From NCBI GenBank assembly GCA_042090795.1, contig JBELIQ010000013.1:7780-71779 (forward strand): a DNA stretch of 64,000 nucleotides, in the 5' to 3' direction. Below, piece after piece: positions 15,499-47,114 of this stretch (position 1 is the first letter of the stretch; the number at the start of each line of letters is the position of its first letter). The notes under the pieces were generated by a model. It was not told the DNA's origin and did no database searches. It saw only the letters and a program-made list of their open reading frames with translations. Source of the stretch: Blastococcus sp. Its GTDB lineage: Bacteria; Actinomycetota; Actinomycetes; Mycobacteriales; Geodermatophilaceae. Position numbers and translations under genes: made by a program.

Positions 15499-16368
15499 AT
15501 GCGCGGGATCATCCTGGCCGGGGGCACGGGGAGCCGGCTCTTCCCCATCACCCAGGCAGTGAGCAAGCAGCTCATGCCGGTCTACGACAAGCCGATGATC
15601 TACTACCCGCTCTCGACGCTGATGATGGCCGGCGTCCGCGAGGTGCTGATCATCACCACCCCCGATGACTCCGACGCGTTCCGCGCGCTGCTGGGCGACG
15701 GCAGCCGGCTGGGCATGCGCATCGAGTACGCGGTCCAGCCGCGGCCCGAGGGGCTGGCGCAGGCGTTCCTGATCGGCGCGGAGTTCCTCGACGGCGAGGC
15801 GGCCGCCCTCGTGCTGGGCGACAACATCTTCTACGGCGCCGGCCTGGGCACCGCCCTGGCCCGGCTGCCCGAGCCCGCCGGCGGCCACGTGTTCGCCTAT
15901 CACGTGGCCAACCCGCAGGAGTACGGCGTCGTGGAGTTCGACACCGCCGGCCGCGTGCTGTCCATCGAGGAGAAGCCGGCGAAGCCCAAGAGCTCCTACG
16001 CCGTCCCGGGGCTGTACTTCTACGCGGGCGACGTCGTCGAGGTGGCCCGCGGCATCCGGCCCAGCGAACGCGGCGAGCTGGAGATCACCGCCGTGAACGA
16101 GCACTACCTGCGGGCGGACCGGCTCACCGTCACCGTCCTGGACCGCGGCACCGCCTGGCTGGACACCGGCACGTTCGCCTCGCTGCGCCAGGCCACGGAG
16201 TTCGTCTCGGTGGTCGAGGAACGGCAGGGCCTCAAGATCGGCTGCATCGAGGAGGTCGCCTGGCGCAACGGCTGGCTGGACGACGACGGCCTGGTGCGCG
16301 CGGCCGGGCCGCTGGGCAAGAGCGGCTACGGCGACTACCTGCTCGGGCTGCTCGCCGAGCGGCACTGA
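15499..16368 (+). CDS. rmlA: Glucose-1-phosphate thymidylyltransferase
   Basis: [33 protein letters not shown]; [10 protein letters not shown]. Confidence 0.98.
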
Positions 16369-16520
16369 CGCCGGCAGCGGGGGTGCGCGCGGCCGACGGG
16401 CGCCCTGCCCCGGAGCCGGATCGCGCCTAGGCTGGGACGTCGAACCGCCCGGCCAGGTCGTTGCCGCCGGCGGTGGCCGCCGGGACGACCGTGCACCCAG
16501 CGCAGGACGGACGAACCACC

Positions 16521-18324
16521 GTGCCGAGCACCGCCCAGGACCACCCCGCCGCCGCGCCGACGGAGGCACCACCGGGTCAGGTCCCGGGCCGGCGCGACAC
16601 CCCCGGACCGCCTGCGCACCGTCGAGCGGATCCTCTACGCCGCGGTCCTGCTGGGCGTCCTGGGCGCCGGGTGGGCCCGTCGCTGGACGTCGGACGACGC
16701 GTTCATCAACTTCCGCGTGGTCGAGAACCTCCTCGCCGGCAACGGCCCGGTGTTCTCCGCCGGGGAGCGGACCGAGGTCGCCACGAGCCCGGCCTGGCTC
16801 GCGGTGCTGACCGTCGCCGAATGGCTGGTGCCGGGTGACGCCGTGGCCTGGATCTCCGTGGTGCTCGGGCTGGTCGGGACGGCGACCGGCGTCCTGCTCG
16901 CCATGCTGGGTGCGCGCGCCCTGTTCGGCGGCACGGCGGCACGGCTGTCGGTCCCCTTCGGCGCGGTCGTCTTCCTGGCCCTGCCGCCGACGTGGGACTT
17001 CACCACCTCCGGACTCGAGACGGGCCTGTCCTTCGCCTGGCTGGGCGCGTCCTTCTGGGGGCTCGTGCGCTGGCTGCAGCGCGGGCAGCGGTGCGCCGGC
17101 CGGCCGGTGTGGCTCTACGTGCTGCTGGGCCTCGGCCCGCTCGTCCGGCCCGACTTCGCCCTCGTCGCCGGGGTCCTGCTGCTGTGGATCACCGTGTCCG
17201 CCGTCGGCCCCTGGTGGCGGCGGTTGCTGGGCCTGGCCGCCGCCGGGCTCCTGCCGGTCGCCTACCAGGTCTTCCGGATGGGCTTCTACGGGCTGGTCGT
17301 CCCCAACACCGCCGTGGCCAAGGAGTCCGGCCGCCCGCTCTGGGGGCGCGGCACGGACTACCTGCTGGACCTCGCGGCGCCGCACCTGCTGTGGGTCCCC
17401 GGCCTGCTCCTCGTCGCGATGGTCGCCGTCCTGCTGCCCTCGCCGGCGTGGCGCGCCCGCGAGTGGTCGCTCGCCGGCGCCGTGGTCCTGGCGGCCGTGG
17501 CGCACGGTCTCTACGTGGTGCGGGTCGGCGGCGACTTCATGCACGCCCGCCTGCTGATGCCGAGCCTGTTCCTCCTGCTCTGCCCGCTCGCCGCCGTGCC
17601 GTTCGTCCGGGCCCGCGCCCGGGCCGGCGCCGCCGTCCTCACCGCGACCGCGGTCTGGGCGCTGGCCTCGGCGGCGGTCCTGCGCACCGACTACGAGGGG
17701 AGCGTCTCCGCCGACGGCCTGATCGCCGACGAGCGGGGCTTCTACGCCGGCCTGGCGGGGGTCGCGAACCCGGTCACGCTGGAGGACCACGGCGGCGCCG
17801 GGGTGTCCGGCTACGTCGCCCGGGTCAACCAGCTCGCCGACGACGGGGCGGACCTCGTGGTGCTCCAGGTGACGCCGGTGCGACCCGGCACCGAGGTCGA
17901 GGTGCTCGCGCCCTCGTCGGGCGGCGTGGTGTTCTCCGTCGGCAACGCCGGGTTCTACGGGTACGCCGCCGACCTCGACGTCTTCGTCCTCGACGGCCTG
18001 GGCCTCACCGACACGGTCAACAGCCACATCGAGGCCGGGCCGCCCGGGCGTCCGGGGCACGAGAAGATCTATCCGGCCTGGTACCTGCTCGCCCGCTACG
18101 GCGCGGCCGAGCTCGCCGAACGCCAGGTCGAGGACCTGCCCGCCATCGATCTGGTGGCGGCCTCGCGCACCGCGCTCGCCTGCGGGGACCTCGCCGAGCT
18201 CGTGGCATCGACGACCGAGCCGCTGACCTGGCAGCGCTTCCGTGACAACCTGGTGGGTGCGCCCGATCGCACCTCCCTGCGCATCCCGGCCGACCCGGCC
18301 GAGGCGGTGCAGCAGTTCTGCTGA
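16521..18324 (+). pseudogene. aftB: AftB-like terminal beta(1->2) arabinofuranosyltransferase with an apparent +1 frameshift near 16600 (may be a sequence error)
   Basis: RWTSDDAFINFRVVENLLAGNGPVF...GERTEVATSP, LVPNTAVAK-like, GGDFMHARLL and PGRPGHEK motifs. The frame has no ATG/GTG/TTG between 16369 and 16717. A GTG at 16521 is in another frame. Confidence 0.75.
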
Positions 18325-18331
18325 GCGGTCC

Positions 18332-19252
18332 TCAGATCCGGCGGTGGTCGGTCGGGGCGTTGCGCGGCCCGAACCGCGGCGCCCGCGCCACCCCGTTGAC
18401 CAGCAGCAGCCGGACCACCCGGTGCCGCTGCCCGGTCCAGGGCGCGAGCAGCGCCATCATCGCGTCGTCGTCGGTGCGGGCGGCCCCCGTCAGCGCGAAA
18501 CCGACCTGGTTCTTCAGGTGGAAGTCGCCGTAGCTCACCGTGTCGGGGCAGCCGAAGACCCGCTGCACGACCTCGGCCGCGGTCCAGCGCCCGATGCCGG
18601 GCACCGTCGTCAGCCGGCGCTGCAGGTCTGCCGCGTCGAGGGCCTCGGGCGGCTCCATGCGGGCGGCCACCGACGCGACCGCGCGCAGCGCCCGGCGGCG
18701 GGCGCCGTCCAGGCCGCAGCGGTGCCACTCCCAGTCGGTGATGTCCAGCAGCCGGCGGGGCGAGGGCGGCACCCGCATGCCGTCGGGTGCGGGTCCCGGT
18801 GCCGGGTCCCCCGCCAGCCGCAGCAGCGCCCGCCACACGCGGTTCGCCTCGATCGTGGTCACCTTCTGCTCCAGCACCGCCGGCACGAGCGCGTCCCACG
18901 TCCGCTCGGTGCGGCCCAGCCGCAGCCACGGGGTCGTGCGCTGGAGCCGGGAGAGCAGCGGATGGCCGGCGCAGTCCAGGGCGGCGGCGTCGTCGGCCGC
19001 GCCGAGCCAGCCCGGCACCCGCCGGCCGGCCCACTCCGCCCCCGGCCCCCATGCGGCGACGCGGACCTCCCCGCCGGCAACGGTGATCCGGACGGCCGCC
19101 GCGCCGTCGGGCGTGGTCGTCACCCGCCAGGTCCCGTCCTGCTCGAACCGCAGGGTGGGGTCACCGGCCCCGCGCAGGTGCACCGCCAGCGTGCGCCGGA
19201 CCTCCAGCGGCCAGTCCGGCCGGAAGGCGGACTCGAAGGCAGGTGCGGACAC
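18332..19252 (-). CDS. HhH-GPD DNA-3-methyladenine glycosylase 2 family (AlkA-like)
   Basis: ALVPAVLEQKVT, TVPGIGRWTA, GDFHL. Confidence 0.9.
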   Translation of the reverse strand: MSAPAFESAFRPDWPLEVRRTLAVHLRGAGDPTLRFEQDGTWRVTTTPDGAAAVRITVAGGEVRVAAWGPGAEWAGRRVPGWLGAADDAAALDCAGHPLLSRLQRTTPWLRLGRTERTWDALVPAVLEQKVTTIEANRVWRALLRLAGDPAPGPAPDGMRVPPSPRRLLDITDWEWHRCGLDGARRRALRAVASVAARMEPPEALDAADLQRRLTTVPGIGRWTAAEVVQRVFGCPDTVSYGDFHLKNQVGFALTGAARTDDDAMMALLAPWTGQRHRVVRLLLVNGVARAPRFGPRNAPTDHRRI

Positions 19253-19367: not shown

Positions 19368-20468
19368 TCAGCTGAACCGGTCGCCGTGCCGGGACTCCAC
19401 CGCGGCGAGCAGCTGCTTCACCCGTTCGGCGTCGCCCACCGGGCACACCATGGTCACGTCCGCCGTGTGCACCACGACGCAGTCGCGCACGCCCAGCAGC
19501 GTCACCAGGTGGTCCGGGTCGTCGGAGAGGACGACGTTGCCGGAGCTGTCGAGCAGCACCCGCAGGCCCCGGGCGGCGTTGCCGTCGTCGTCCGCCTCGA
19601 GGGTGTTCGCCAGCGCGGGCCAGGAGCCGATGTCGAGCCACTCGACGTCGAGGTCGACGACGGCGACCCGCCCCGGCTCGGCGGCCGCGGGCTCCAGGAC
19701 GGCGTAGTCGACGCTGATCTTCGGCAGCGTCGGGAAGACCTCCGCCAGGACCGCGTCGCGCTCCGCCCCGGCCGGCGCCGCCACGATGCGGGCCAGGCCG
19801 GCCGCCGACTCCGGGAGGTGGTCGGCCAGGGCGTCCAGCACGGTCTGCGCGCGCCACACGAACATGCCGGAGTTCCAGAGGTACTCGCCCGAGGCGAGGT
19901 AGGCCTCGGCGGTCGCGCAGTCGGGCTTCTCCCGGAAGGACGCCGCCTCGGCCGCTCCGGGCACCTCCGTCGGCGCCCCCTTCTGCACGTAGCCGAAGCC
20001 GGTCGCGGGCGAGGTCGGTGTGACCCCGAGGGTCACCAGCGCCGTCGGCCGCACGCCGAGGAGGTCGTAGGCGGTGGTCAGCGCGGACACGAAGCGCTCG
20101 ACCGGCCGGATGACGTGGTCGGCGCTGACGATGGCGAGCTCGGCGTCCGGGTCCACGTCGGCCACCAGCGCGGCGGCGAGGCCGACGGCGTTCGCGGTGT
20201 CGCGGGCGGTCGGCTCGAGCACCAGCCGGTCGGGGCGCAGCCGCGGCAGCGCGGCGCGGACCAGGTCGGCGTAGCGGGCCGCGGTGCACACCCAGATCCG
20301 GTCGGCCGGCAGCACCGCCTCGAGCCGGGTGAAGGCCTCGGCCAGCAGGCTGTGCGCGCCGCCGTCCTCGTCGGTCACGACGTCGAGCAGCTGCTTGGGG
20401 CGCCGGGCGCGGGACAGCGGCCACAGCCGGGTGCCCGAACCGCCGGCCATGATCACCGCGTGCCGCAC
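19368..20468 (-). CDS. manC: Mannose-1-phosphate guanylyltransferase
   Basis: MAGGSGTRLWPLSR..RPKQLL, EP..RDTA, GFGYV, FREKP, WNSGMF, ISVDYAVLE, WLDIGSW. Confidence 0.95.
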   Translation of the reverse strand: MRHAVIMAGGSGTRLWPLSRARRPKQLLDVVTDEDGGAHSLLAEAFTRLEAVLPADRIWVCTAARYADLVRAALPRLRPDRLVLEPTARDTANAVGLAAALVADVDPDAELAIVSADHVIRPVERFVSALTTAYDLLGVRPTALVTLGVTPTSPATGFGYVQKGAPTEVPGAAEAASFREKPDCATAEAYLASGEYLWNSGMFVWRAQTVLDALADHLPESAAGLARIVAAPAGAERDAVLAEVFPTLPKISVDYAVLEPAAAEPGRVAVVDLDVEWLDIGSWPALANTLEADDDGNAARGLRVLLDSSGNVVLSDDPDHLVTLLGVRDCVVVHTADVTMVCPVGDAERVKQLLAAVESRHGDRFS

Positions 20469-20469: not shown

Positions 20470-21438
20470 TCAGTCCTCCGTCGGAGCGGTGCCGGCCGGC
20501 GCACCCGGCCGGCGTCCGTCGCCGGCCCCGAGGACGTCGAGGTCCGCGGCGCGGCGCTGGAACCGGGCACCGGCGGCCACCCGGCCGCTGACGTAGGACA
20601 GCAGCATCCGGGCACCCAGGCCACCGCGGAGCGCACCGCGCAGGGGCAGGTGCCTCCGGCCGGGGTACTGCCCGGACATGTAGCGCAGCGCGCTGGCGTG
20701 GTGCACTCGCCGCATGCGGTACGGATCGCGCTGGGTCGCGTGCCCGCCCTCGTGGACGACGACGGCGGAGGGGACGTAGACGTGCAGCCAGCCGCGGTTG
20801 CCCAGCCGTTCGGCGAGGTCGACGTCCTCGAAGTACATGAAGTAGCCCGGGTCGAAGCCACCCACCGACCAGAACGCCTCCAGGTTCACCAGCAGGCAGG
20901 AACCCGACAGCCAGCCGGCCGGCCGCTCCCGCGGCGCCTCCCGCTCGCGCCGGTAGCGCGCCGTCCAGGGGTTGGCCGGCCAGGCCCAGCCCAGCAGTGC
21001 GTGCCCGGCACCGGTGGAGAGCCGGGGCAGGTCACGGGCCGAGGGGTAGAGGTCGCCGTCGGGCGTCTTGATCGCCGGTCCGATGGTGGCCGCCCGGGGC
21101 CAGCGCTCCGCCGCGGCCAGCAGCGCGTCGATGGAGCCGGGCTCGAAGTGCAGGTCGGGGTTGGCCACGATCGCGTAGCCGGTGGACAGCCCGGCCAGAC
21201 CGGCGTTCGCCGCGGCGCCGTAGCCGATGTTGCCCCCGGTGCTGAGCACCCGCACGTTCCCGTGCTCGGCGGCGGTGCGCTCCGGCTCGCCGTCGGTCGA
21301 GCCGTTGTCCGCGAGGACGATCTCCACCGGGCGGGTCGTGGCGGCAGCGATCGACTCGACGAAACCGCGGAGCACCGCGCCGGGCGAGTAGGTGACCGCC
21401 ACCACCCGCAGCGGGGGGTCGGCAGGGACGGATCGCAT
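20470..21438 (-). CDS. wbbL: GT2 rhamnosyltransferase for the AG linker unit (WbbL)
   Basis: VTYSPG, DNGSTDG, GGNIGYGAAAN, NPD, GWLSGSCLL, YFMYFEDVDL; synteny with Rv3265c. Confidence 0.88.
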   Translation of the reverse strand: MRSVPADPPLRVVAVTYSPGAVLRGFVESIAAATTRPVEIVLADNGSTDGEPERTAAEHGNVRVLSTGGNIGYGAAANAGLAGLSTGYAIVANPDLHFEPGSIDALLAAAERWPRAATIGPAIKTPDGDLYPSARDLPRLSTGAGHALLGWAWPANPWTARYRREREAPRERPAGWLSGSCLLVNLEAFWSVGGFDPGYFMYFEDVDLAERLGNRGWLHVYVPSAVVVHEGGHATQRDPYRMRRVHHASALRYMSGQYPGRRHLPLRGALRGGLGARMLLSYVSGRVAAGARFQRRAADLDVLGAGDGRRPGAPAGTAPTED

Positions 21439-21580
21439 GCCGAGAACGTAACGGGCGGGGGAATCGGACAGGTGCGACCGCCCGCGCTCCCCCTCGGGAG
21501 AGGGGGTGGTCGTGTATCCATTGGACCGAAGCCGCGGGCCTCCCGGACCCGCTCTCGCACGACGACTCCCGAGGGCGGAG

Positions 21581-23512
21581 ATGAACACGCAGGTGTCCCC
21601 GAGGACGACCACGACGGACCCGGCCCCGCCGCCGCGCCCGGCCGGCCGGGTCGGCGGACCGCGCGTCCTCCTCCCGTGGGTCCTCGTCCCCCTCGCCGTC
21701 GCCGTGGGGTACCTGGTCCTGCCCCCGGCGGCCGAGCTGCGCAGCCAGTACCAGGCCTCGGCCCTGGTCCTGGTGTCCGCACCGCTGCTCGGCTGGCTGC
21801 TGACCCGCCGCACGCCGGTCGCCCACCACTGGGCGGGGGCGGTGGTGGCCGCGCTGCTGCCCGCGCTGACCCTGATCTCGCTCAACGGCACCGACTGGTT
21901 CTTCTCCGGTCCGCGCGGGGACCAGTCCTTCCGCATGGAGTACGTCGCCCGGTTCGCCGACTCCCTGGCGCTGCAGGACTACACCTACCGGGACGTCCCG
22001 GCGTTCTACTCCCCCGGCTGGTTCTGGCTCCAGGGACTGGTCGCGCAGCTCGCCGACGTCGAGGCGTGGCAGGTCTACAAGTGGGCGTCGATCGTCACGC
22101 TCTACCTCGCGGCCGTCCTGGCCTTCACGCTGTGGCGGCTGACCTGCAGCACCCGGTTGTCGGCCCTGCTCGTCGCGGTGACCGTGGTGGGGCTGCCGGC
22201 CGCCGGGTCCGGCTGGCTGGGCGCGCAGACGCTGATGTTCTCCGGGGCGTACGAGCCCTACGCCTGGTTGGTGGCCCTGCCGCTGCCCGCACTGCTGGCC
22301 TGGTTCGCCGCCGCCCGGGGCCCCTTCTCCTGGGGCCGCGGCCTGGCCCTGGGAGCGGCGCTGGCGGGGGCCGCGTGGCTGTACCTCCTGTACGCGCTCG
22401 TGGCCGTGGTCGGCGTGCTGGTCCTCGTCGCGTGGCGACGGAACTCCGCCCGGCTGCGGGAGGTGGCGGTCGCCGGGGGCACCTCGATCGTGCTGGTCTC
22501 GCCGTGGCTGGGCCGGTTCCTGGTCGAGTACCTGGCCGCCGGGCTCCCGCCTGCGGCGGCGACCACCTGGGTCGAGGACGACTCCTACGTCAACCTGGTG
22601 ACCATCAGCGCCTCCCCCTGGCTGTGGGCGGCGCTGCTGGGCGCCGTCGGGCTGCTGGTGCTCGACGGGGAGCGGCACCCGCGGGTCCGCGGCGTCCAGG
22701 CCCTCGGCGTCGCCGTGCTGCTGCTGGGCGCCGTCCAGCTGGTGGCCGGGCAGGCCTCGGGGGGCGTCCTGTTCCACCGGGTGCTGCTGGTGCTCGGGCT
22801 CTGCCTCCTCGCCGCGGCGACGCTCACGCTCGCGGTGGTCGGCCCGGACCTGGCGGCCCGCGCCGCCGGCGCCTGGCCGAGGGTGCCGCTGCGCCGGCTG
22901 GCCTTCGCCGCGCTCACCGTGCTGCTGTTCCTGAACCTCTCGGCGCACGCCCGCGAGTGGATGAACCGGGACGTCGACCTGAGCCGGCTGGCGCACAACC
23001 ACCCGTATCCCGACGGCAGCCTCCCCGCCCTGGCCTCGACCGAGGGCCGGGAGGTGGCCGAGGACGAGGAGGGCGGCGAGGTGCCCGTGTCCGAGCTGTC
23101 CGAGGCGATCCGCGACTCGGCGCGCGCGGCCGGGCAGGCGGAGACCGGCGTCGTCCTCACCGATCGCATCTCGCTGCTGGCGACCCAGCCCTTCTACGCC
23201 TACCAGCAGTGGTGGGGGCTCTACGCCAACCCGCTGGGCGAGTACGCGGAGCGCCGGGCGTTCCTCGAGTCGCTCGAGGGGCTGCCGGCCGACGCCGTCG
23301 TGGAGCGGCTGCGCGCCGACGACCGGGCGCCCACCGTCTTCGCCCTGGAGGTGGACGACGGGGAGGTGACCTTCGACTCGACCGACCGGGACGCGGGCGG
23401 CGACCGCGGGAGCGCCTGGTCGGTCAGCTTCCCGGTGGAGCTCTTCGAGGGGCCGGACTTCGAGACCACGCGCGCCGGCGACTGGCTCGTGGCAGCCCTC
23501 CGGGAGGGGTGA
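21581..23512 (+). CDS. aftA: AftA-like priming arabinofuranosyltransferase (GT-C)
   Basis: GDQSFRMEYVARF...DYTYRDVPAFYSPGWFWL; C-terminal YANPLGEY; multiple TM segments. Confidence 0.85.
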   Translation: MNTQVSPRTTTTDPAPPPRPAGRVGGPRVLLPWVLVPLAVAVGYLVLPPAAELRSQYQASALVLVSAPLLGWLLTRRTPVAHHWAGAVVAALLPALTLISLNGTDWFFSGPRGDQSFRMEYVARFADSLALQDYTYRDVPAFYSPGWFWLQGLVAQLADVEAWQVYKWASIVTLYLAAVLAFTLWRLTCSTRLSALLVAVTVVGLPAAGSGWLGAQTLMFSGAYEPYAWLVALPLPALLAWFAAARGPFSWGRGLALGAALAGAAWLYLLYALVAVVGVLVLVAWRRNSARLREVAVAGGTSIVLVSPWLGRFLVEYLAAGLPPAAATTWVEDDSYVNLVTISASPWLWAALLGAVGLLVLDGERHPRVRGVQALGVAVLLLGAVQLVAGQASGGVLFHRVLLVLGLCLLAAATLTLAVVGPDLAARAAGAWPRVPLRRLAFAALTVLLFLNLSAHAREWMNRDVDLSRLAHNHPYPDGSLPALASTEGREVAEDEEGGEVPVSELSEAIRDSARAAGQAETGVVLTDRISLLATQPFYAYQQWWGLYANPLGEYAERRAFLESLEGLPADAVVERLRADDRAPTVFALEVDDGEVTFDSTDRDAGGDRGSAWSVSFPVELFEGPDFETTRAGDWLVAALREG

Positions 23513-24754
<1,242 letters not shown>

Positions 24755-24761
24755 CCACCTG

Positions 24762-29238: not shown

Positions 29239-29383
29239 GTTGGTCGAGGCTACCGGCCGCGGCGCGAGCCCCGGCGCACTCGGTGGTACCAGGGGCGGTC
29301 GGGGCTGACGGGTCCGCAGAGGCGCACCGTCCGCCCGGCGGCGGTCACCCGGGACGCACATCCCCCGCGGCTACCCTCGCCGC

Positions 29384-38456: not shown

Positions 38457-39435
38457 CGAAGACTCCCAACGCCATGGTGCCCACCCAGAGCACACCGAGG
38501 CAGAGCAGCACGCGGTCGTGCAGGACGATCTCCTCGGGTGCGCCGGCGGAGCCCTTGTCCACGTCCACCGCGTACCTGAGGATCGCCATGACGAACGGGG
38601 CGATGGAGATGGTCGACCACGGGATGCCCTCCTGCGTCTCCCCCATCTCGAAGGCCCACAGGCTGTAGGCGGTGACCGCCACGCCGGCCGAGAGGCTCCA
38701 CACGAACCGCAGGTAGCTCGCCGAGTACTCCTTCAGCGTCTTGCGCGTCGCGGCGGCGTCGCCGACCAGGACCAGCTCGGAGTAGCGCTTGCCGGCGACC
38801 ATGAACAGCGAGCCGAAGGCGGCGACGAGCAGGAACCACTGCGACAGCACCAGCCCGGCCGCCACGCCCCCGGCGATGCCGCGGAGCAGGAAGCCCGAGG
38901 CGACGACGGCGAGGTCGATGACCGGCTGGTTCTTGAGGAACACGCAGTAGGCCAGCTGGATGACCACGTAGCTGGTCAGCACCCACGCCAGCTCGGGACG
39001 GGTGAGCAGCACGGCGGCCACCAGCGCGACGGTGAACAGCACGGCGGCCATGACCAGGGCGAGCCAGCGCGGCACGATGCCGGCGGCGATCGGCCGGAAC
39101 CGCTTGCGCGGGTGCCGACGGTCCTCCTCGACGTCGATCGTGTCGTTGACCAGGTAGACGGCGGACGCGGCGAGGCAGAAGAGCACGAACGCGGCGGCGG
39201 TCGGCCCCATGACGTCGGGGTTGAAGATCTCCCCCGCGGCCAGCGGGGCGGCCAGGACCAGCACGTTCTTGACCCACTGGCGGGGTCGCAGCGCCCGCAC
39301 CAGGCCCCAGGCGAAGCTCCCCCGGAAGCCGGGGAGGCGGGGGGCCGGCTCCGGAGCGGACGAGGTCTCGTCGGGAACCGGCGCCGTCGTGGCCTCCGGC
39401 GCCAGTGCGGGGCTCGACTGGGGATGCACGGTCAC
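38449..39435 (-). CDS. ubiA: Decaprenyl-phosphate phosphoribosyltransferase (DPPR synthase)
   Basis: RPRQWVKNVLV, YLVND..D...DR.HPRKR.RPIAAG, GKRY.E, GAPEE. Confidence 0.94.
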   Translation of the reverse strand: MTVHPQSSPALAPEATTAPVPDETSSAPEPAPRLPGFRGSFAWGLVRALRPRQWVKNVLVLAAPLAAGEIFNPDVMGPTAAAFVLFCLAASAVYLVNDTIDVEEDRRHPRKRFRPIAAGIVPRWLALVMAAVLFTVALVAAVLLTRPELAWVLTSYVVIQLAYCVFLKNQPVIDLAVVASGFLLRGIAGGVAAGLVLSQWFLLVAAFGSLFMVAGKRYSELVLVGDAAATRKTLKEYSASYLRFVWSLSAGVAVTAYSLWAFEMGETQEGIPWSTISIAPFVMAILRYAVDVDKGSAGAPEEIVLHDRVLLCLGVLWVGTMALGVFDV

Positions 39436-39965
39436 GCCTTCCTGCCTGGGTGTCTGGTCATGCGGCGCCGCACGGCCGTGGCCACGCCCGCGCCGAGCAC
39501 GGCGCCGGACACCACGTCCGAGGGGTAGTGGACGCCCAGGAGCACCCGGGAGACCAGCATGACGCCGGTCAGCGCCACCATGGGGGGACGCCCGACCATG
39601 GGTCCGAAACCGACGGCGGCCGCCGCCGTCGAGCAGCTGTGCGCGCTGGGGAAGGACAGCCGGCTCGGCGTCCCCACCAGCGCCGGGACGTCCTCCAGCG
39701 CGGGCCGCACCCGGCGGACCACGCGCTTGACCGCCACACCCGCGGCGTGCGCGGCGACGACGCCGGTGATGCCGGCCGCCCACTCCTCGCGCCGGCGGCC
39801 GGCGGCCCACCCGGCCGCGCCGAGGGCCAGCCAGCCGAGCGCGTGCTCGCCGAAGTGCGACAGACCACGGGCGACGGGGACGGCCGGGGTGCTCCCGAGC
39901 GCGCGGCGCGTGGAGCGGAGCACCGCGTGGTCGATCCGGATCAGGGCAGCGCTCGGTGCGGTCAT
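39432..39965 (-). CDS. PAP2 phosphatase (Rv3807c-like DPPR phosphatase)
   Basis: K..VRRVRP, SFPSAH, SRVLLGVHYPSDV; overlaps the ubiA start. Confidence 0.9.
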   Translation of the reverse strand: MTAPSAALIRIDHAVLRSTRRALGSTPAVPVARGLSHFGEHALGWLALGAAGWAAGRRREEWAAGITGVVAAHAAGVAVKRVVRRVRPALEDVPALVGTPSRLSFPSAHSCSTAAAAVGFGPMVGRPPMVALTGVMLVSRVLLGVHYPSDVVSGAVLGAGVATAVRRRMTRHPGRKA

Positions 39966-40056
39966 CGAGTGACGACTGTAGACGGGCAGCCGCGCCGTTG
40001 CCGGGACCACGCGGGGCGGACCGATCCGTCGCAACACTGCCTGCCACTCTTGACCC

Positions 40057-40893
40057 GTGTCCACCACCCGACCCGCGCCGTCCGGCGCCGGGCTGCCGGA
40101 GCTGCCGGGCGAGCTGCTCGCCGCGGTCGTCCGCAGGAACGCCGCCGCCCCCCTGCTCACCGCCTACGACGACGCGACCGGCGACCGCGTGGAGCTGTCC
40201 GCGGCCACGCTGGCCAACTGGGTGGCCAAGACCGCGAACCTGCTGCAGGACGAGTTCGACGTCGGGCCGGGCAGCACGGTGGCCCTGGCGCTGCCCGTCC
40301 ACTGGCAGACCGCAGCGGTGCTGCTGGCCACGTGGAGCTGCGGTGCCGCGGTGCTGGACACCGCCGCCGAGGACGACGACCGGCTCGCCGACGCCGCCGT
40401 CGTCCTCGCCGACCGGGACCGGCTGCCGGCCCTGGAGGACGTGCTCGGGGCCGACGGGGCGGAACTGCTCGGGCTCTCGCTGCACCCGCTCGGGATGGGC
40501 ATGACCGACTACGTGGGACCGGCCCGGGACTTCGCCCTGGAGGTGCGGGCGCACGGCGACTTCTTCGCGCCGTGGCAGCCGCCGGACCCGGCCGCACCGG
40601 GTCTGGTGACCGGCGGGCTGACGCTGGCCCTCGGCGGCCTGGTCGCCGCGGCCGGCGAGCTCGCCACCCGGCTCGGCATCCGGTCCGACGACCGGGTGCT
40701 GGTCGATGCCGACACCGCGGCGGAGGCCGGGCCCGTGGCGTGGCTGCTCGCGCCGCTCGTCGCGGGCGCGTCCACGGTGCTGGTCCGCCATCCCGCCGTC
40801 GACGGCCTCGCACACCGAGCGGCCACCGAGCGCGTGACCGCCACCCTGGGCCCGAGGATCGAGGGGGTCCGCGCGCTCGGCGCACCGGCCTGA
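40057..40893 (+). CDS. TIGR03089 family protein (Rv3268-like)
   Basis: PLLTAYDDATGDRVELSAATLANWVAKTANLL, LPVHWQ. Confidence 0.9.
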   Translation: MSTTRPAPSGAGLPELPGELLAAVVRRNAAAPLLTAYDDATGDRVELSAATLANWVAKTANLLQDEFDVGPGSTVALALPVHWQTAAVLLATWSCGAAVLDTAAEDDDRLADAAVVLADRDRLPALEDVLGADGAELLGLSLHPLGMGMTDYVGPARDFALEVRAHGDFFAPWQPPDPAAPGLVTGGLTLALGGLVAAAGELATRLGIRSDDRVLVDADTAAEAGPVAWLLAPLVAGASTVLVRHPAVDGLAHRAATERVTATLGPRIEGVRALGAPA

Positions 40894-41079: not shown

Positions 41080-41670
41080 GTGCCTTCCCGCTCCCGCCCG
41101 TCCGGCCGCCGCCGCACCCTGCTGTTCCTCCTGCTCGCGGTGGCGCTCGTCGCCGCGGCCGGCTTCTGGCTGACGACCCGTGCGGACGACGACCGCGACA
41201 CGACCGCGGCGAACAGCACGCCCACGGCGGCACCGACGACCTCGCCGCCGGTCACGGACAGCGAGGAGCTGGCCAGCCTCGGGCCCGACCGCACCGACGG
41301 TGTTCCCGTCCCGACCGAGCCGACCGCCGAGGTCGCCACCGACACCCCCGCGCCGACGGAGGAGGCCGGTGACGAGGTGACCCCGCAGCTGACCTACTAC
41401 GGCTGGAACCCCGACCTCGAGGCGGTCGAGGCCGCCGGCATCGTCCTGGGCCTCGTCGAGTCCGGCGGCACCTGCACGCTGACGCTGAGCCAGGGCCAGG
41501 CCGCGGTGGCGGTCTCCGCGACGGCCGTCGACAACGTGACCTCCACGTCGTGCCCGGCGATGACCGTCCCCGGGGCCCGGTTGACGCCGGGCACCTGGCA
41601 GGCCGTCCTCTCCTACGAGTCCGGGACGTCGCAGGGCGTCGCGGAAGCCGCGGAGGTCGAGATCCCGTGA
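41080..41670 (+). CDS. Hypothetical membrane-anchored protein
   Basis: N-terminal TM segment, T/P-rich linker, C-terminal domain with two Cys; overlaps the next gene. Confidence 0.7.
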   Translation: MPSRSRPSGRRRTLLFLLLAVALVAAAGFWLTTRADDDRDTTAANSTPTAAPTTSPPVTDSEELASLGPDRTDGVPVPTEPTAEVATDTPAPTEEAGDEVTPQLTYYGWNPDLEAVEAAGIVLGLVESGGTCTLTLSQGQAAVAVSATAVDNVTSTSCPAMTVPGARLTPGTWQAVLSYESGTSQGVAEAAEVEIP

Positions 41671-43775
41671 CGCGCCCCCTGCTGCGCGCCCTCGCCGTCC
41701 TCACCGTCGTCGCCGCCTCGCTGCTGAGCCCGGTCGCCACGAGCACCCCTGCCCAGCAGGCCGACGCCGCCGACGCCCGGCAGTTCGACCCGGGCAACAT
41801 CATCTCCGACGCCGTCTTCTTCGACGGGCGCGCGATGAACGCCACCCAGATCCAGGACTTCCTCATCAGCAAGAGCCCGAGCTCCTGCCCGGACCCCGCG
41901 CAGGACACCAGCCCGTGCCTCGAGGACTTCCGGATGAACACGGCCTCCCAGCCCGCGGACAGCCTCTGCGCCGGCTACGAGGGCGCGACGCGGGAGAGCG
42001 CCGCGCAGATCATCGCCAAGGTCTCGGTCTCCTGCCGGGTCAGCCCGCGGGTCATCCTGGTGCTGCTGCAGAAGGAGATGGGTTTCATCACCAGCAGCAA
42101 CCCGACGGCCAAGATGTACGACCGGGCAGCCGGCTACTACTGCCCCGACATCGGTACCGGCTGGTGCCACCCCGACTACGCCGGGCTGCAGAAGCAGCTG
42201 TACAACTCGGCCCGGCAGTACCAGCGGTACGCCGCCATGCCGACGAAGTACAGCTACCGGGCGGGGTACACCAACACCATCCAGTGGAGCGTCCCGATCT
42301 CCTGCGGGACGTCCCGGGTGTACATCGACAACCAGGCGACGGCGGGCCTGTACAACTACACCCCCTACCGCCCGAACCAGGCAGCACTGAACGCCGGCTA
42401 CGGCACGGGCGACACGTGCTCGGCCTACGGCAACCGCAACTTCTGGCTGTACTTCACCGACTGGTTCGGCTCCACCCAGTCCTCCGGGGGCGGCGCCATC
42501 GCCGCCCGGGCCGCCCAGCCCGACGCCGCCGCGATCGGCCGGGCCACCTCCGGGATCATCTGCGGGCTGGCCGACCGCGGCTGCTTCCGCGCCCACGAGG
42601 CCGGTGCCATCTACTGGTCGCCGACCACGGGCGCCCGCCTGATGTGGGGCGGCATCCACGCCCGCTGGGCCGCACTGGGCTGGGAGAAGAGCCGGTTGGG
42701 CTACCCGACCACCGAGCAGATGTGCGGCCTGCCCGGGGGCGGGTGCTTCCAGGAGTACCAGGACGGGGCCATCTACTGGTCACCGGTCGGGGGGCCCCAG
42801 CCGCTGTACGGGGCGATCCGGACGAAGTGGAACAGCACCGGGTGGGAGGCCGGGCCTCTCGGGTACCCGATCTCCGGCGAGTGGTGCGGACTGGCCGGCC
42901 GCGGCTGCGTGCAGAAGTTCGAGCGCGGCAACGTCTACTGGTCCTCCGCCAGCGGCGCGCGCATGATGCTGCCGGGGGCCGTGTTCGACATCTGGCGGGC
43001 ACGCGGCGCCGACAGGGGCACCCTCGGGTACCCCGACGGCGACGAGGCGTGCGGCCACCCGGACGGCGGATGCCTGCAGTCGTTCCAGCAGGGCGCCGTC
43101 TACACCTCGGCGTCGCAGCCCCCCCGGATCGTCGTCGGCGCCGTGGCGACGAAGTACGCCGCGGCGAAGGCCCACGGCGGCGCGCTGGGCTACCCCACGA
43201 ACAGCACGGCGTGCGGCCTCCGGGACAGCGGGTGCTTCCAGGAGTTCGAACGCGGCGTCATCTACAGCTCCGCTGCTGGGGGCGCGCGCATGGTCCTCGA
43301 CGGAGCGATCCGCCGGACCTGGGCGGCCTACCGCCTCGAGGCCGGCCAGCTCGGCTACCCGGCCGGCGATCAGCGGTGCCAGCACTGGGGCTGCTCCCAG
43401 CAGTTCACCGGCGGCGCCGTCTACCTCACCAAGGACGGCACGAAGGTCGTCTGGGGGGCGATCTATGCGGCGTGGACCCGCGAGCGCCAGGAGCGCGGCC
43501 CGCTGGGCCTCCCGGTCCGCGGTGAGGTCTGCGGCCTGGTCAAGCGCGGCTGCTTCCAGGAGTTCCAGCGGGGCAGCATGTACTGGTCGCCCACCACGGG
43601 TGCCCACCGGGTCAGCGGGAAGATCTTCGCCGCCTGGGGCAACCAGGGCTACGAGCGGGGCACGCTGGGCTACCCGACGTCGGCCCCGTCGGTCTCCGCC
43701 AAGGGGATCACCCAGCGGTTCCAGGGCGGGACGCTCGTGCAGGCCAGCGGCACCGGCACGGTCACCCGGAAGTAG
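41667..43775 (+). CDS. Secreted LGFP-repeat cell-surface protein with an N-terminal putative hydrolase-like domain
   Basis: Signal peptide; FDPGNIISD...LLQKE...LYNYTP domain; seven LG[YL]P repeats. Confidence 0.85.
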   Translation: MTRPLLRALAVLTVVAASLLSPVATSTPAQQADAADARQFDPGNIISDAVFFDGRAMNATQIQDFLISKSPSSCPDPAQDTSPCLEDFRMNTASQPADSLCAGYEGATRESAAQIIAKVSVSCRVSPRVILVLLQKEMGFITSSNPTAKMYDRAAGYYCPDIGTGWCHPDYAGLQKQLYNSARQYQRYAAMPTKYSYRAGYTNTIQWSVPISCGTSRVYIDNQATAGLYNYTPYRPNQAALNAGYGTGDTCSAYGNRNFWLYFTDWFGSTQSSGGGAIAARAAQPDAAAIGRATSGIICGLADRGCFRAHEAGAIYWSPTTGARLMWGGIHARWAALGWEKSRLGYPTTEQMCGLPGGGCFQEYQDGAIYWSPVGGPQPLYGAIRTKWNSTGWEAGPLGYPISGEWCGLAGRGCVQKFERGNVYWSSASGARMMLPGAVFDIWRARGADRGTLGYPDGDEACGHPDGGCLQSFQQGAVYTSASQPPRIVVGAVATKYAAAKAHGGALGYPTNSTACGLRDSGCFQEFERGVIYSSAAGGARMVLDGAIRRTWAAYRLEAGQLGYPAGDQRCQHWGCSQQFTGGAVYLTKDGTKVVWGAIYAAWTRERQERGPLGLPVRGEVCGLVKRGCFQEFQRGSMYWSPTTGAHRVSGKIFAAWGNQGYERGTLGYPTSAPSVSAKGITQRFQGGTLVQASGTGTVTRK

Positions 43776-43828: not shown

Positions 43829-43886
43829 AGGTCCGGAAAGTAGGCTCCCGCCCGATGACGACCGCTCCGCAGGGTCCGGCCCGCCG

Positions 43887-46800
43887 GTGACCGGTCAGCC
43901 GCCACCGCCCCCGGACGACGTCACCGCCGACGTCACCGCCGACGTCACCGCCGGCGCGACCGAGGCCCCGACGGGTACCGACTCCTCCTCCGCCGGCCGG
44001 CCGTGGGTACGGCGGCGGGCAGCCTGGGTGCTCGCACTGCTCGCCCTGGCACTGGCCTTCTCCCTGCCGCTGGCACCCGTGTCGGTCGACACCCCCGAGG
44101 TCCAGTGGCCGCTGGACCCGGCCGACCCGCAGCCCACGACGGCGCTGTTCATGCCCTACCGCCCGATCGACGTCACGGCCACGGCCCCGTGTGCCACCGT
44201 CCGCGCACTCGCCGGCGGCCTGCAGGAGGGGGACGCCCCCGCCGTCCTCGTCGCGACCGCGCTGCCCAGTTCCACCCGGGGCAACGAGCGGTCCCTGTCG
44301 ATCGGCGTCGACCGCGACATGGTCCGCATCGTCTCCTCGGGCGCCCTGCTGTGGCAGGGGCCCGTGCCCGAGGAGGACGACTGCGAGCTCGTCGTCCGGG
44401 CCGATCAGGAGGGCACGCAGGCCTCGCTGGAATCCCCTGGGCAGGAGCCGCAGGTCCTGGCGGACGACCCCGGCGCCCGGGTCCCCGAGGTGACGGCGTT
44501 CACCACCGACGTCACCGCCGGTGCCGGGCCCTCCCCCACCGTCGTCGCGCACCCCGATGCCCGTTTCCAGACCTCGCCGACGGCCGGCAAGCTCGTCCTC
44601 GTCGCGCTGCACGTGCTCGCGGTGCTGGCCTGCCTCTGGCTGCTGTGGCGGGCCGGGCCCCCGGCCCTGCGCCGCCGCGACCGGGCGACGACGGCCGGCA
44701 CGACGGCCGGCACGACGGCCGGAGCGACGGCCGGAGCCACGGCCGTCGCCGAGCCGGTGCGGGCCGACCTCGGCTATGCCCGGGCGCCGTGGGGACGGGC
44801 GATGACCGTCGTCGCCGACGTCGGGGTGGTCCTGACCCTGGTCGCGTGGACCGTCATCGGTTTCCTCAACACCGACGACTACTACTACAGCCTCGAGGCG
44901 CGCACCCTGGACGACGCGGGCCTGGTCGGGAACCAGTTCCGGTTCTTCAACGTGCCCGAGGTGCCCTTCGTCCTGCTCCAGACGCTGCTCGCGCCGCTGA
45001 CCGAGCTGTCCACCCAGCCCGTCGTGCTGCGGTTGCCCTCGCTGGCCGCGGGCCTGCTGGTGTGGTGGCTGCTCACCCGGCAGCTCATCCCGCTGCTCGT
45101 GGAGCGCCCCCACCCCTCGCTGCGGCTCGTGGCCGGAGTGGCGCTGCTCGCCTGGTGGCTGCCCTGGAACATCGGCGTCCGGCCGGAGTTCCTCGTCACG
45201 CTGGCGTGGACGGTCACCGTCACCCTCGCCCTGCAGGCCATCCGCCTGCAACGGGCGTGGCTGATCGGCCTGGCCGCCGCGGTCGCCGGTACGGCGGTCA
45301 CGATCACCGCCTCCGGGCTGGCCTGCGTGGCGACGCTGCTCGTCCTGCTGCCGCGGATGTGGCCCACCCTGCGCCGGTCGACGCTGGGCGCGTGGGCGTC
45401 GGTCGCACTCGTGACGGCCTGCGCCAGCCTGCCCGCCACCGTGGTGTTCTCCGACGCGACCCTGGCCACCGCCCGCACGGCCCTGCGCGTGCACCAGGAG
45501 GTCGGTCCGGCCGAGTCCTGGGACATGGAGATCATGCGGTACTGGTACCTGACCCTGGGTCCGGACGAGAACATGCGGACCTTCGCCAAGCAGCTGATCG
45601 TGATCCTCACGATCGTGGTGGTCATCGCCGTCTCGATCAGCCTGCTGCGCATGACCCGCACCCGCGGTGGGCGCACCAGCTGGCTGGTGCCGGCCCTCGG
45701 CTTCCTCATCACCGTCGTCGCGCTGGTGCCCTCCCCCACGAAGTGGACCCACCACTTCGGTGCCCTGGCCGCGCCCGGCGCGCTCGCCCTGACCGTCGCC
45801 GTGGCGCTGCTCGTGCGCCGGCGCCCGGACACCTGGGCCTCCGCAGGGATCCTCGGCGCGGTGGCCTTCACCGCCGCGCTGGCCTTCCACGCCGGGAACC
45901 AGCAGGTGGAGTCCTCCGCCTACGGCGTCACCCCCGTGCTCCCCGACAGCCTGGGCAACCCCTTCCTGTGGCTGGCCGCCGGCCTGCTCGTGGCGGCGGT
46001 GGCCTGGTGGGTGCGCCGCCGGGCCGGATCGACCCACCAGCCGTGGCCGGAGGCGGCCGTCGGCACGCTGGTCGCGGCGCTGGTGATGTCCGTGCTCATC
46101 CAGACGGCGAGCGCGGGGCTGGCCACCTGGCGGTACCGCGACTCCTTCTCGCTGGCCGCGAGCGCGGCCGACGCACTCACCGGGGAGGACGACTGCGGCT
46201 TCGCCGACCACGCCGTCGCCCTGACCGATCCCGCGGTCCTGCGTGCGGTGCCCGGTGCCGACGCGGAGCGCGCGGGAGCTCCGGAGGACGCCTTCCCGGG
46301 GGTGGGCAGCTCCGTGGGCGCCCTGGCCCCCGATGACGTGCGCCGGTATTCGACCTGGGCGGCGGAGCCTCCGGTCGGGCCCACGACGATCACGACGCCG
46401 TGGCTGGAGATCGGCGACCTCACCGAGCGCGACGTCCTCGCCGTCTCGGTGACCGGGGACCTCGACTCCGGCACCGAGGTGACCGTGCAGTACGGGACGG
46501 GCGGGCCGGGAGAGGAGCCCACCGTGCTCCAGGAGGTGCCGGTCGAGTTCCCCGAAGGGGACGAGCCCGACGGCTCCTGGGAGCAGGAGCGGCTCGGCTC
46601 CACCACCCATCTCCCCGCCGGGGCCACGCTCGTCCGCGTCGAGGCGATCGACCGCAACTTCACCGGGAGCGGCTGGCTCGGCGTCACCGACCCCTACCGG
46701 GTCGACGGGCGGCTCCTCCGCGAGCTGTTCGAGGGTGAGGACGTCGTCCTCGACTGGCCGGTCGGGTTCACCCTGCCCTGCATCGACCCGCCGCGCATCG

Positions 46801-47114
46801 CCGACGGCCTGGTCCCGCCGGTGGACTGGATCATGCTGAGCGAGAAGTACGCCGACGCGCCGGAACTGCTCGTCATCGACGAACGCGGCGGCAGCTACTC
46901 GACCCTGACCGAGGTGGCCGACGCGACCACCTACCCCGGCTTCTCCCCCGGCGTCGGGCCGGAGTACACCGAGTGGGGCCGGGTCATCCGCTACGACCGG
47001 GAGCTGCCGGCCGACGCCTACCGGATGGTCGAGGACGAGCGGGTCATCCCCGGCTGGGGCTGGTGGCCCGGCGCCGGCGAGGGCCCGGTGCCCGACGGTG
47101 ACAAGCCCGACTGA
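43887..47114 (+). CDS. emb: Second, divergent Emb-family arabinosyltransferase
   Basis: TDDYYY, NIGVRPE, SPTKWTHHFGA, LDWPVGFTLPC. Confidence 0.82.
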   Translation: MTGQPPPPPDDVTADVTADVTAGATEAPTGTDSSSAGRPWVRRRAAWVLALLALALAFSLPLAPVSVDTPEVQWPLDPADPQPTTALFMPYRPIDVTATAPCATVRALAGGLQEGDAPAVLVATALPSSTRGNERSLSIGVDRDMVRIVSSGALLWQGPVPEEDDCELVVRADQEGTQASLESPGQEPQVLADDPGARVPEVTAFTTDVTAGAGPSPTVVAHPDARFQTSPTAGKLVLVALHVLAVLACLWLLWRAGPPALRRRDRATTAGTTAGTTAGATAGATAVAEPVRADLGYARAPWGRAMTVVADVGVVLTLVAWTVIGFLNTDDYYYSLEARTLDDAGLVGNQFRFFNVPEVPFVLLQTLLAPLTELSTQPVVLRLPSLAAGLLVWWLLTRQLIPLLVERPHPSLRLVAGVALLAWWLPWNIGVRPEFLVTLAWTVTVTLALQAIRLQRAWLIGLAAAVAGTAVTITASGLACVATLLVLLPRMWPTLRRSTLGAWASVALVTACASLPATVVFSDATLATARTALRVHQEVGPAESWDMEIMRYWYLTLGPDENMRTFAKQLIVILTIVVVIAVSISLLRMTRTRGGRTSWLVPALGFLITVVALVPSPTKWTHHFGALAAPGALALTVAVALLVRRRPDTWASAGILGAVAFTAALAFHAGNQQVESSAYGVTPVLPDSLGNPFLWLAAGLLVAAVAWWVRRRAGSTHQPWPEAAVGTLVAALVMSVLIQTASAGLATWRYRDSFSLAASAADALTGEDDCGFADHAVALTDPAVLRAVPGADAERAGAPEDAFPGVGSSVGALAPDDVRRYSTWAAEPPVGPTTITTPWLEIGDLTERDVLAVSVTGDLDSGTEVTVQYGTGGPGEEPTVLQEVPVEFPEGDEPDGSWEQERLGSTTHLPAGATLVRVEAIDRNFTGSGWLGVTDPYRVDGRLLRELFEGEDVVLDWPVGFTLPCIDPPRIADGLVPPVDWIMLSEKYADAPELLVIDERGGSYSTLTEVADATTYPGFSPGVGPEYTEWGRVIRYDRELPADAYRMVEDERVIPGWGWWPGAGEGPVPDGDKPD
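43917..43952 (+). repeat. 3 x 12-bp perfect tandem repeat (DVTA)
   Basis: GACGTCACCGCC x3. Confidence 0.95.
44688..44747 (+). repeat. 5 x 12-bp degenerate tandem repeat (TTAG/ATAG)
   Basis: ACGACGGCCGGC-like units. Confidence 0.9.

Follow-up and report, generated by a model that had tools for sequence, protein, structure and literature searches.

A candidate arabinogalactan locus without mycolate genes at a polymorphic wall-glycopolymer site in Blastococcus

The block between positions 15499 (RmlA start) and 47114 (Emb2 stop) of a 64,000-nucleotide stretch of Blastococcus sp. DNA (contig JBELIQ010000013.1; the whole stretch is referred to here as the window) probably is a locus for a peptidoglycan-linked arabinogalactan-type wall polysaccharide in an organism predicted to lack mycolic acids, a reading to which we assign a probability of roughly 80% on the basis of sequence comparisons. 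Across Geodermatophilaceae, conserved housekeeping genes flank a polymorphic wall-glycopolymer site, and the locus is one of the forms that this site takes. Mycolate-free arabinogalactan walls are textbook knowledge for Pseudonocardiales and Actinopolysporales (PMC6194230), and whole-cell arabinose and galactose have been reported for most Blastococcus strains and Trujillonella, with differences from strain to strain (PMC9686282). The kind of system and the sugars of the genus are already known, and the modularity and variability of the locus are the more interesting result.

Gene content and genomic setting

Because the window has a G+C content of ~74%, genes were called by third-position G+C (GC3), and they were named by NCBIfam and Pfam (Table 1). 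Eight locus genes (those for RmlA, Glf, GlfT1, Wzt, Wzm, DprE1, DprE2, and UbiA) pass NCBIfam equivalog cut-offs, and AftA, GlfT2 (three domains), both Emb proteins (three domains each), LCP, PAP2, and the LGFP protein pass Pfam gathering scores. Coding signal is strong (GC3 of 0.9-0.98) and long frames are intact in all locus genes except the AftB-like one. Together with PDB matches, these assignments bear out the inventory of a preliminary description made from the sequence alone, which had placed linker, galactan, export, arabinose-donor, arabinan, and ligation genes and an LGFP protein within 15499-47114. Gene models needed revision at several points: the AftB-like gene is frameshifted, the DUF6752 gene lies on the plus strand, and the ManC and WbbL genes are shorter than their longest open reading frames (ORFs). 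A minus-strand ORF at 35773-36264 was rejected as a gene, being the antisense of the DUF6752 gene (GC3 of 0.85 versus 0.96).

The arabinogalactan genes are interleaved with the manC-wbbL-LCP-TIGR03089 part of a conserved housekeeping backbone, in agreement with the proposal in the preliminary description that they are merged at the wbbL-LCP site. The left flank carries sahH, manA, glpD, DUF808, an SIS protein gene, pmmA, DUF3499, whiB, fbiA, and fbiB, and the right flank carries sulP, a TagF-like glycerophosphotransferase gene, an acyl-CoA dehydrogenase gene, purE, purK, gtrA, sbcD, birA, and genes for an acyl-CoA carboxylase beta subunit and a biotin carboxylase. We take the window backbone with its flanks to correspond to Rv3248c to Rv3285 of Mycobacterium tuberculosis and, within it, the fbiAB-manC-wbbL-LCP-TIGR03089 portion to correspond to Rv3261-Rv3268.

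Several pathway genes had been said to be missing from the window (rmlBCD, wecA, aftC, and aftD), and homologs or candidates for most of them were indeed located on other contigs. They comprise AftD on contig C20 (PF11847, 780 bits, in a 1462-amino-acid ORF), a WecA-like GT4 on C47 (MraY is on C4), RmlC on C11 and C22, an RmlD-like gene on C22 with an epimerase-type frame beside it, and two GT87 genes that are candidates for AftC. No NCBIfam family was matched by these two GT87 genes or by AftA, Emb1, Emb2, and the LGFP protein of the locus. A linker and ligase set consisting of LCP, RmlA, WbbL, and the WecA-like, RmlC, and RmlD-like proteins was found, with specificities presumed from homology. 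Contig C22 also holds, at 49000-62000, a second RmlC gene together with GT2 genes in a segment of 68% G+C (~6 points below the ~74% of the window), which could represent another polysaccharide cluster, perhaps an acquired one.

Host organism and predicted absence of mycolic acids

Judging from its protein sequences, the genome is that of a Blastococcus species within Geodermatophilaceae. The closest named relatives of its Emb1 are from Blastococcus goldschmidtiae (85% identity) and Blastococcus sp. TF02-09 (73%), followed by other Blastococcus, Modestobacter, and Trujillonella proteins (51-59%), with Pseudonocardia and Actinomycetospora at ~40%. The organism lives on rock and in soil. NCBI places the genus in the order Geodermatophilales, whereas GTDB groups Geodermatophilaceae in one order with two other Emb-bearing families, f12 and f15; from trees and genome features, we infer these to be the mycolate producers and Pseudonocardiaceae, respectively. 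The suggestion that this organism stands outside Mycobacteriales therefore holds for the NCBI order and with respect to the mycolate producers, but not for the GTDB order, which the family has in common with the mycolate producers and Pseudonocardiaceae.

The mycolate genes accD4, pks13, fadD32, and those for antigen 85 lie between embB and aftB in M. tuberculosis. None of them was found in the block, including between its Emb and AftB-like genes (antigen 85 was not searched genome-wide), as the preliminary description had noted. The Pks13 condensase is a multidomain protein of ~1700 amino acids with a ketosynthase domain, and a PF00109 scan of this 99.7%-complete genome found no Pks13-type ketosynthase: there was one strong match, in a 487-amino-acid frame, and there were three weak ones, in frames of 445-511 amino acids. 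A single strong ketosynthase in a frame of that size is incompatible with the presence of Pks13 or of a type I fatty-acid synthase (FAS-I), and this Blastococcus is predicted to make no mycolic acids. The nine or so MMPL genes of the genome (720-820 amino acids) were considered as a mycolate marker and dropped, as the family is too widespread to be diagnostic.

A polymorphic site across Geodermatophilaceae

The order ManC-WbbL-AftA-Glf-GlfT2-GlfT1-Wzt-Wzm-Emb1-LCP-LicD-methyltransferase-DprE2-DprE1-UbiA-PAP2-TIGR03089 is repeated in eight named or metagenome-assembled loci of the family (four from Blastococcus, two from Modestobacter, one from Trujillonella endophytica, and one from a metagenome-assembled genome), compared as far as the retrieved stretches reach. 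It is also present in G120, a genome of another genus that has the same locus as the window except for Emb2. With nine or more genomes from at least three genera showing this order, the clustering is not due to chance, and the supercluster is a family trait rather than a peculiarity of this genome.

The trait is unevenly distributed. In an even sample of 121 Geodermatophilaceae genomes, Emb was detected in 38 genomes (8 of the 15 genera) and GlfT2 in 74; both were present in 34 genomes, GlfT2 only in 40, Emb only in 4, and neither in 43. Both Emb states occur within at least five genera, and in the genus of the window 11 genomes with Emb stand beside at least 10 without it, nearly all of them near complete. 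Reading 40-60 kb from ten family genomes anchored on TIGR03089, and from two named genomes anchored on WbbL, revealed several locus types: full arabinogalactan, galactan only, galactan plus a different Emb module, and unrelated polysaccharides. Three congeners with galactan-only loci (G086, G098, and G031) keep the backbone and the Glf, GlfT1, Wzt, Wzm, and LGFP genes and lack AftB-like, AftA, Emb, LicD-methyltransferase, DprE1, DprE2, UbiA, and PAP2 genes at the site; in G086, LCP directly abuts TIGR03089. Geodermatophilus obscurus (L099, CP001867.1) likewise has a galactan-only locus, and a Blastococcus saxobsidens genome has the galactan core with an AftB_C gene, the core being without AftA and Emb1. 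In two genomes, the galactan core is joined by another kind of Emb module, which lies downstream of TIGR03089; three genomes of other genera carry unrelated polysaccharide genes at the same site, and in another congener (G110) Glf is displaced and a different gene set occupies the site. RmlA behaves as a backbone gene present in all relatives, while AftA is not found in the galactan-only ones, and the LicD-methyltransferase and DUF6752 pair accompanies the arabinan module. No fewer than four separate positions between backbone genes are occupied by arabinan genes.

Two further observations concern individual loci. The G. obscurus locus contains two GlfT2-type genes (2161-4023 and 6719-8638 of L099). 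In genome G017 (L064-L065), UbiA (82%) and PAP2 (61%) genes lie beside TIGR03089 although the site is without Emb, Glf, DprE1, and DprE2 genes, which hints at a use of decaprenyl-phosphoribose outside arabinan synthesis.

The genotypes agree with published chemotaxonomy. Blastococcus aurantiacus DSM 44268 (L020) and T. endophytica (L017) carry the cluster, and both have been reported to contain arabinose and galactose (PMC9686282), whereas galactose and no arabinose has been reported for G. obscurus, with its galactan-only locus (PMC5742155). More generally, Geodermatophilus and Klenkia are mostly without arabinose (PMC9686282, PMC5742155).

Allele patterns and deeper history

Proteins of the window were compared with those of the galactan-only congener G086. 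Flank proteins are 89 to 91% identical (FbiA, 91%; RmlA, 91%; acyl-CoA dehydrogenase, 90%; PurE, 89%), and Glf within the locus is 93% identical, whereas GlfT2, Wzm, and LCP are only 57%, 65%, and 67% identical, respectively. The GlfT2 of the window is closer to that of G120 (72%), an arabinogalactan-type genome of another genus. In the GlfT2 tree, arabinogalactan-type copies of three genera form one clade (support of 100), and galactan-type copies of two Blastococcus genomes cluster with a third genus; in the tested genomes, GlfT2 alleles thus split by locus type and not by genus. In a tree of flank genes, the galactan-only congeners are the neighbors of the window, and G120 pairs with a member of its genus that lacks an arabinogalactan-type locus. 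For a small allele-tree sample and a flank tree of four linked genes, these patterns appear to be explained better by allele lineages of old standing, or by exchange of the site as a whole, than by recent deletions. The broader proposal, that arabinogalactan is not fixed in Geodermatophilaceae and is one of several wall-glycopolymer types at one polymorphic locus whose allele lineages are older than the genera, is one that we hold at about even odds.

At greater depth, Geodermatophilaceae DprE1 proteins form one clade (support of 100) whose stem measures 0.8 changes per site and which none of the sampled Pseudonocardiaceae or mycolate producers enters. Emb proteins, which occur in 127 of 401 genomes of the GTDB order and are confined within it to three families, fall into three deep classes. 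Class A includes every copy from mycolate producers (among them mycobacterial EmbA, EmbB, and EmbC) and one Pseudonocardiaceae set; class B includes the family Emb1, sister to a second paralogue of Pseudonocardia and Actinomycetospora; and class C includes Emb2 together with atypical Emb genes from G046 and G002 and additional copies from Pseudonocardiaceae. Recent transfer from the sampled Pseudonocardiaceae or mycolate producers was rejected for DprE1 and Emb1, each of which forms a clade of the family's own on a long stem. Ancient vertical descent with many losses and ancient transfer are both possible histories.

Proposed pathway and alternative explanations

By homology to the mycobacterial pathway, we propose the following route. 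The WecA-like enzyme (C47) and WbbL would build an N-acetylglucosamine-rhamnose (GlcNAc-Rha) linker on polyprenyl phosphate, with dTDP-rhamnose supplied by RmlA in the window and by RmlC and the RmlD-like protein encoded elsewhere. Glf would provide UDP-galactofuranose for polymerization of the galactan by GlfT1 and GlfT2, and the lipid-linked galactan would be exported by Wzm/Wzt. UbiA, PAP2, DprE1, and DprE2 are predicted to make decaprenyl-phospho-arabinose, from which, outside the membrane, AftA would prime the arabinan on the galactan and Emb1 would extend it. Branches may be added by AftD (C20), possibly with a GT87 enzyme, and beta-1,2 caps by the AftB-like enzyme, if it is intact, and LCP would ligate the polymer to peptidoglycan. 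In a genome without Pks13, the arabinan ends would be free or carry other groups, for whose attachment the neighboring LicD-methyltransferase is a candidate enzyme.

Some points weigh against this interpretation. The chemical evidence consists of whole-cell sugar reports for relatives that carry the cluster. AftA is very divergent from the M. tuberculosis enzyme (60 bits), neither of the two GT87 candidates for AftC is named by NCBIfam, and the RmlD-like match falls just under its cut-off (212 versus 224 bits). The identity of WbbL depends on gene order and on the annotation of other sources, namely JGI and NCBI, in which homologs (~80% identity, ~310 amino acids) are named N-acetylglucosaminyl-diphospho-decaprenol L-rhamnosyltransferase. 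Finally, no canonical start precedes the DD motif in the frame of the AftB-like gene, and the homologous N-terminal part is encoded in a different frame.

It is conceivable that the genes make an arabinose- and galactose-containing polymer other than peptidoglycan-linked arabinogalactan, such as a membrane-anchored lipoglycan, capsule, or exopolysaccharide, and that LCP serves a different polymer. LCP, WbbL, and ManC are backbone genes that are present whatever the variable genes are, so that their adjacency is no proof of a role in making this polymer; Emb2 belongs to a divergent class, and inositol-mannoside polar lipids have been reported for Geodermatophilaceae. However, AftA, which primes arabinan on galactan, strictly co-occurs with Emb1 in arabinogalactan-type loci, and GlfT1 uses the Rha-GlcNAc linker in the known pathway. 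Further, the alleles of LCP, Wzm, and GlfT2 track the type of locus, with 57-67% identity to galactan-only congeners against ~90% for flank genes, suggesting that they handle this polymer. We therefore regard a polymer of another kind as unlikely.

The state of the AftB-like gene raises the question of decay. Its product aligns over nearly the full length of the solved AftB (9dlf) and keeps the RWTSDD motif. The frame is open from 16369, and its first canonical start is at 16717, downstream of that motif. In relatives, the AftB-like genes start with GTG ~50 codons upstream of the motif in the same frame; here, the homologous N-terminus lies in another frame, and frame comparison with the relatives places a 1-nucleotide frameshift near a C5 run at 16600-16604, which is either a sequencing error or a real mutation. 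If real, it could be the first loss toward a galactan-only wall in a decaying or partly functional cluster: the frameshift precedes the DD motif, no AftB-like gene is present at the locus site in the closest named relative, B. goldschmidtiae, and galactan-only congeners exist. Yet sequencing errors of a single base are common in a C5 run of a draft assembly of 74% G+C, the frames of all other locus genes are intact, and loss of AftB alone would remove caps and not the arabinan, all of which makes decay a very unlikely explanation of the locus. An AftB_C-domain gene also adjoins RmlA in the B. saxobsidens locus (L100, SHKV01000001.1, 13874-15616), and as that core locus is without AftA and Emb1, AftB-like genes need not always accompany the other arabinan genes.

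An island that was acquired recently or can be mobilised, and that brings the entire pathway, would account for the contiguity of the genes, for the patchy occurrence of Emb in 38 of 121 family genomes, and for the incongruence of GlfT2 alleles with flank genes. On the other hand, no Pfam match to an integrase or transposase was obtained in any scanned ORF of the window, no tRNA genes lie in it, and its G+C is even (0.70-0.77). The arabinan genes are distributed over at least four positions instead of forming one insert, and the family DprE1 and Emb1 proteins, single clades on long stems, are grouped within them largely by genus. Such an island is hardly credible, and the term mobilisable in the preliminary description is not upheld, the order being inherited family-wide. 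The companion suggestion of an ancestral arrangement is one possibility, with the family genes on a long stem outside the sampled Pseudonocardiaceae and Mycobacteriaceae in the DprE1 tree. A wall arabinogalactan linked to peptidoglycan hence remains our preferred reading of the block.

Features of individual genes

The catalytic residues of the two Emb proteins are preserved in alignment with EmbB. Emb1 reads DDGYISGI where EmbB reads DDGYILGM, keeping the catalytic DDGY and having Ile at the Met306 position of EmbB, which we take to be the position tied to ethambutol resistance in M. tuberculosis, and Emb2 keeps the Asp pair as DDYYY. In an end-to-end alignment with the Mycobacterium smegmatis enzyme, DprE1 reads PGWTLALD in place of PGWNVCVD, with Ala at the position of Cys394. 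This cysteine is presumably the equivalent of M. tuberculosis Cys387, the residue bound covalently by benzothiazinones, and natural insensitivity to these compounds would be expected. Two tandem copies of DprE1 precede DprE2 in loci L087 and L088 from genomes G410 and G450 of family f15, the inferred Pseudonocardiaceae.

Between TIGR03089 and the acyl-CoA dehydrogenase gene, the interval 40900-50700 forms a second variable segment, with genes for the small anchored protein, the LGFP protein, Emb2, SulP, and the TagF-like CDP-glycerol glycerophosphotransferase. The TIGR03089 and acyl-CoA dehydrogenase genes are just 0.6 kb apart in G086.

Table 1. Genes of the block, listed in their order from 15499 to 47114 of the window
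Feature	Coordinates	Strand	Evidence and remarks
RmlA, glucose-1-phosphate thymidylyltransferase (dTDP-rhamnose for linker)	15499..16368	+	TIGR01207, 447 bits (cut-off 361)
AftB-like GT-C arabinofuranosyltransferase	16369..18324	+	NF041481, 262 bits (under equivalog cut-off 1050); PDB 9dlf (AftB), E=9.5e-77
Conserved backbone protein, weak AlkA-like match	18332..19252	-	NF007641, 31 bits only; in relatives with and without arabinogalactan genes
ManC-type mannose-1-phosphate guanylyltransferase, backbone	19368..20465 (upper end approximate)	-	NTP_transferase and ManC_GMP_beta-helix; TIGR01479, 254 bits
WbbL-type GT2 rhamnosyltransferase (linker), backbone	20470..21414 (upper end approximate)	-	Glycos_transf_2; adjoins ManC
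AftA, priming galactan 5-O-arabinofuranosyltransferase, divergent	21506..23512	+	PF12250, 112 bits, and PF12249, 43 bits (AftA_N and AftA_C); PDB 8if8, E=1e-15
Glf, UDP-galactopyranose mutase	23567..24754	+	TIGR00031, 350 bits (cut-off 304)
GlfT2, galactan polymerase	24750..26669 (start approximate)	+	Glft2_N, 172 bits; Glyco_tranf_2_3; GlfT2_domain3, 235 bits
GlfT1	26686..27558 (upper end approximate)	-	NF050113, 490 bits (cut-off 330)
Wzt, ATPase of galactan export ABC transporter	27606..28379	-	NF050108, 458 bits (cut-off 400)
Wzm, permease of galactan export ABC transporter	28405..29361	-	NF050109, 417 bits (cut-off 380)
Emb1, arabinosyltransferase, paralogue class B	29384..32452	+	PF04602, 358 bits; PF14896; PF17689; EmbB (7bvf), E=2e-103
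LCP glycopolymer-to-peptidoglycan ligase with LytR_C, backbone	32616..34184	+	PF03816 (LytR_cpsA_psr), 135 bits; PF13399, 71 bits; TIGR00350, 110 bits
LicD-like domain fused to S-adenosylmethionine methyltransferase, candidate polymer-modifying/capping enzyme	34232..35899	+	PF04991, 25 bits; PF13489, 32 bits
DUF6752 coiled-coil protein, 115 amino acids	35896..36243	+	PF20537, 45 bits; start overlaps LicD-methyltransferase stop codon
DprE2	36292..37083	-	NF053786, 366 bits (cut-off 250)
DprE1	37044..38495	-	NF053785, 699 bits (cut-off 500); PDB 4aut, E=2e-142
UbiA-family decaprenyl-phosphate phosphoribosyltransferase	38449..39450	-	NF008978, 430 bits (cut-off 207); PF01040
PAP2 phosphatase, candidate decaprenylphosphoryl-5-phosphoribose phosphatase	39432..40160	-	PF01569, 49 bits; adjoins UbiA as in Pseudonocardia loci
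TIGR03089-family protein, backbone anchor	40057..40893	+	TIGR03089, 250 bits (cut-off 85); in 15/15 relatives tested
Small membrane-anchored protein	41080..41670	+	No Pfam match; one predicted transmembrane segment; homologues adjoin LGFP genes in relatives
Secreted LGFP protein, wall-binding module	41550..43775	+	PF08310, 369 bits, seven repeats
Emb2, divergent arabinosyltransferase, paralogue class C	43887..47114	+	PF04602, 215 bits; PF14896; PF17689; EmbB, E=1e-66

Implications

Vincent et al. (2018) described arabinogalactan as restricted to Corynebacteriales and some Pseudonocardiales and Actinopolysporales, with Geodermatophilales unmentioned (PMC6194230). A literature search for links between Geodermatophilaceae, Blastococcus, or Modestobacter and arabinogalactan or its enzymes returned incidental matches only, subscription journals being outside the search. 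The novelty that the preliminary description saw in a mycolate-free arabinogalactan wall is consequently narrower than it had suggested: such walls are known from the orders named above and the sugars from Blastococcus itself, and what is added is a family not listed in that survey. The documented range of tuberculosis-type arabinogalactan machinery is thereby extended to a further actinobacterial family, and the variable arabinose and galactose patterns in the taxonomy of Blastococcus, Modestobacter, and Geodermatophilus gain a genetic basis.

Close relatives with and without arabinan genes at one site, which are harmless and can be cultured, could also provide natural comparison sets, both for the role of arabinan in a mycolate-free wall and for the adaptation of GlfT2, Wzm, and LCP to the polymer handled. 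If the broader proposal of one polymorphic locus is correct, Geodermatophilaceae would contain, in harmless and culturable bacteria, natural variants of the tuberculosis-type wall that lack arabinan or galactan, and arabinan would have joined a core of linker and galactan as separable modules, namely, aftB, aftA, emb, and the decaprenyl-phospho-arabinose operon. With regard to the history of the mycobacterial envelope, these data support the view that galactan and arabinan are older than mycolates and separable.

Comparison with known systems

In its population genetics, the site appears to resemble polymorphic O-antigen or capsule loci with ABC-transporter-dependent export in Gram-negative bacteria, such as Escherichia coli O8/O9a (with the WbdD terminator), which have conserved flanks, a variable center, Wzm/Wzt export, and alleles that follow polymer type and not species. 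The likeness extends to a methyltransferase-containing enzyme with a coiled-coil partner beside the transporter genes. The product differs, as the Blastococcus locus is predicted to make a Gram-positive wall glycopolymer ligated by LCP.

With the loci of M. tuberculosis and Corynebacterium glutamicum (Rv3782-Rv3809c and Rv3264c-Rv3267), the block has in common the same enzyme families for linker, galactan, export, donor, arabinan, and ligation, and in both cases AftD is encoded away from the main cluster. The mycobacterial and corynebacterial genes occupy two distant loci, whereas those of Blastococcus form one block inside the manC-wbbL-LCP backbone, without pks13, fadD32, accD4, or antigen 85 genes and with the added LicD-methyltransferase and DUF6752 pair. 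DprE1 and DprE2 share just 43-50% sequence identity with their counterparts, and Emb and AftA ~30%; the benzothiazinone-binding cysteine corresponds to Ala in DprE1, and no Blastococcus Emb belongs to class A, the class of mycobacterial EmbA, EmbB, and EmbC. Corynebacterium (Turicella) otitidis likewise keeps arabinogalactan without mycolic acids (PMC6194230). That species represents a recent loss of mycolate genes among mycolate producers, whereas nothing suggests that the Blastococcus lineage ever had them.

A further parallel is found in Pseudonocardiaceae and Actinopolysporales of chemotype IV, which have arabinogalactan genes without mycolate genes; Pseudonocardiaceae also have Emb classes B and C, in addition to class A. 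In Pseudonocardia, the gene order is like that of M. tuberculosis (DprE1-DprE2-Emb-AftB-Emb ... GlfT2-Glf-UbiA-PAP2, with no mycolate genes), and in the retrieved stretches the cluster lies outside the manC-wbbL-LCP backbone, unlike that of Blastococcus. Pseudonocardiaceae are the nearest sequence relatives outside the family, with identities of 52-58% for DprE1, 51-62% for DprE2, and ~76% for Wzt.

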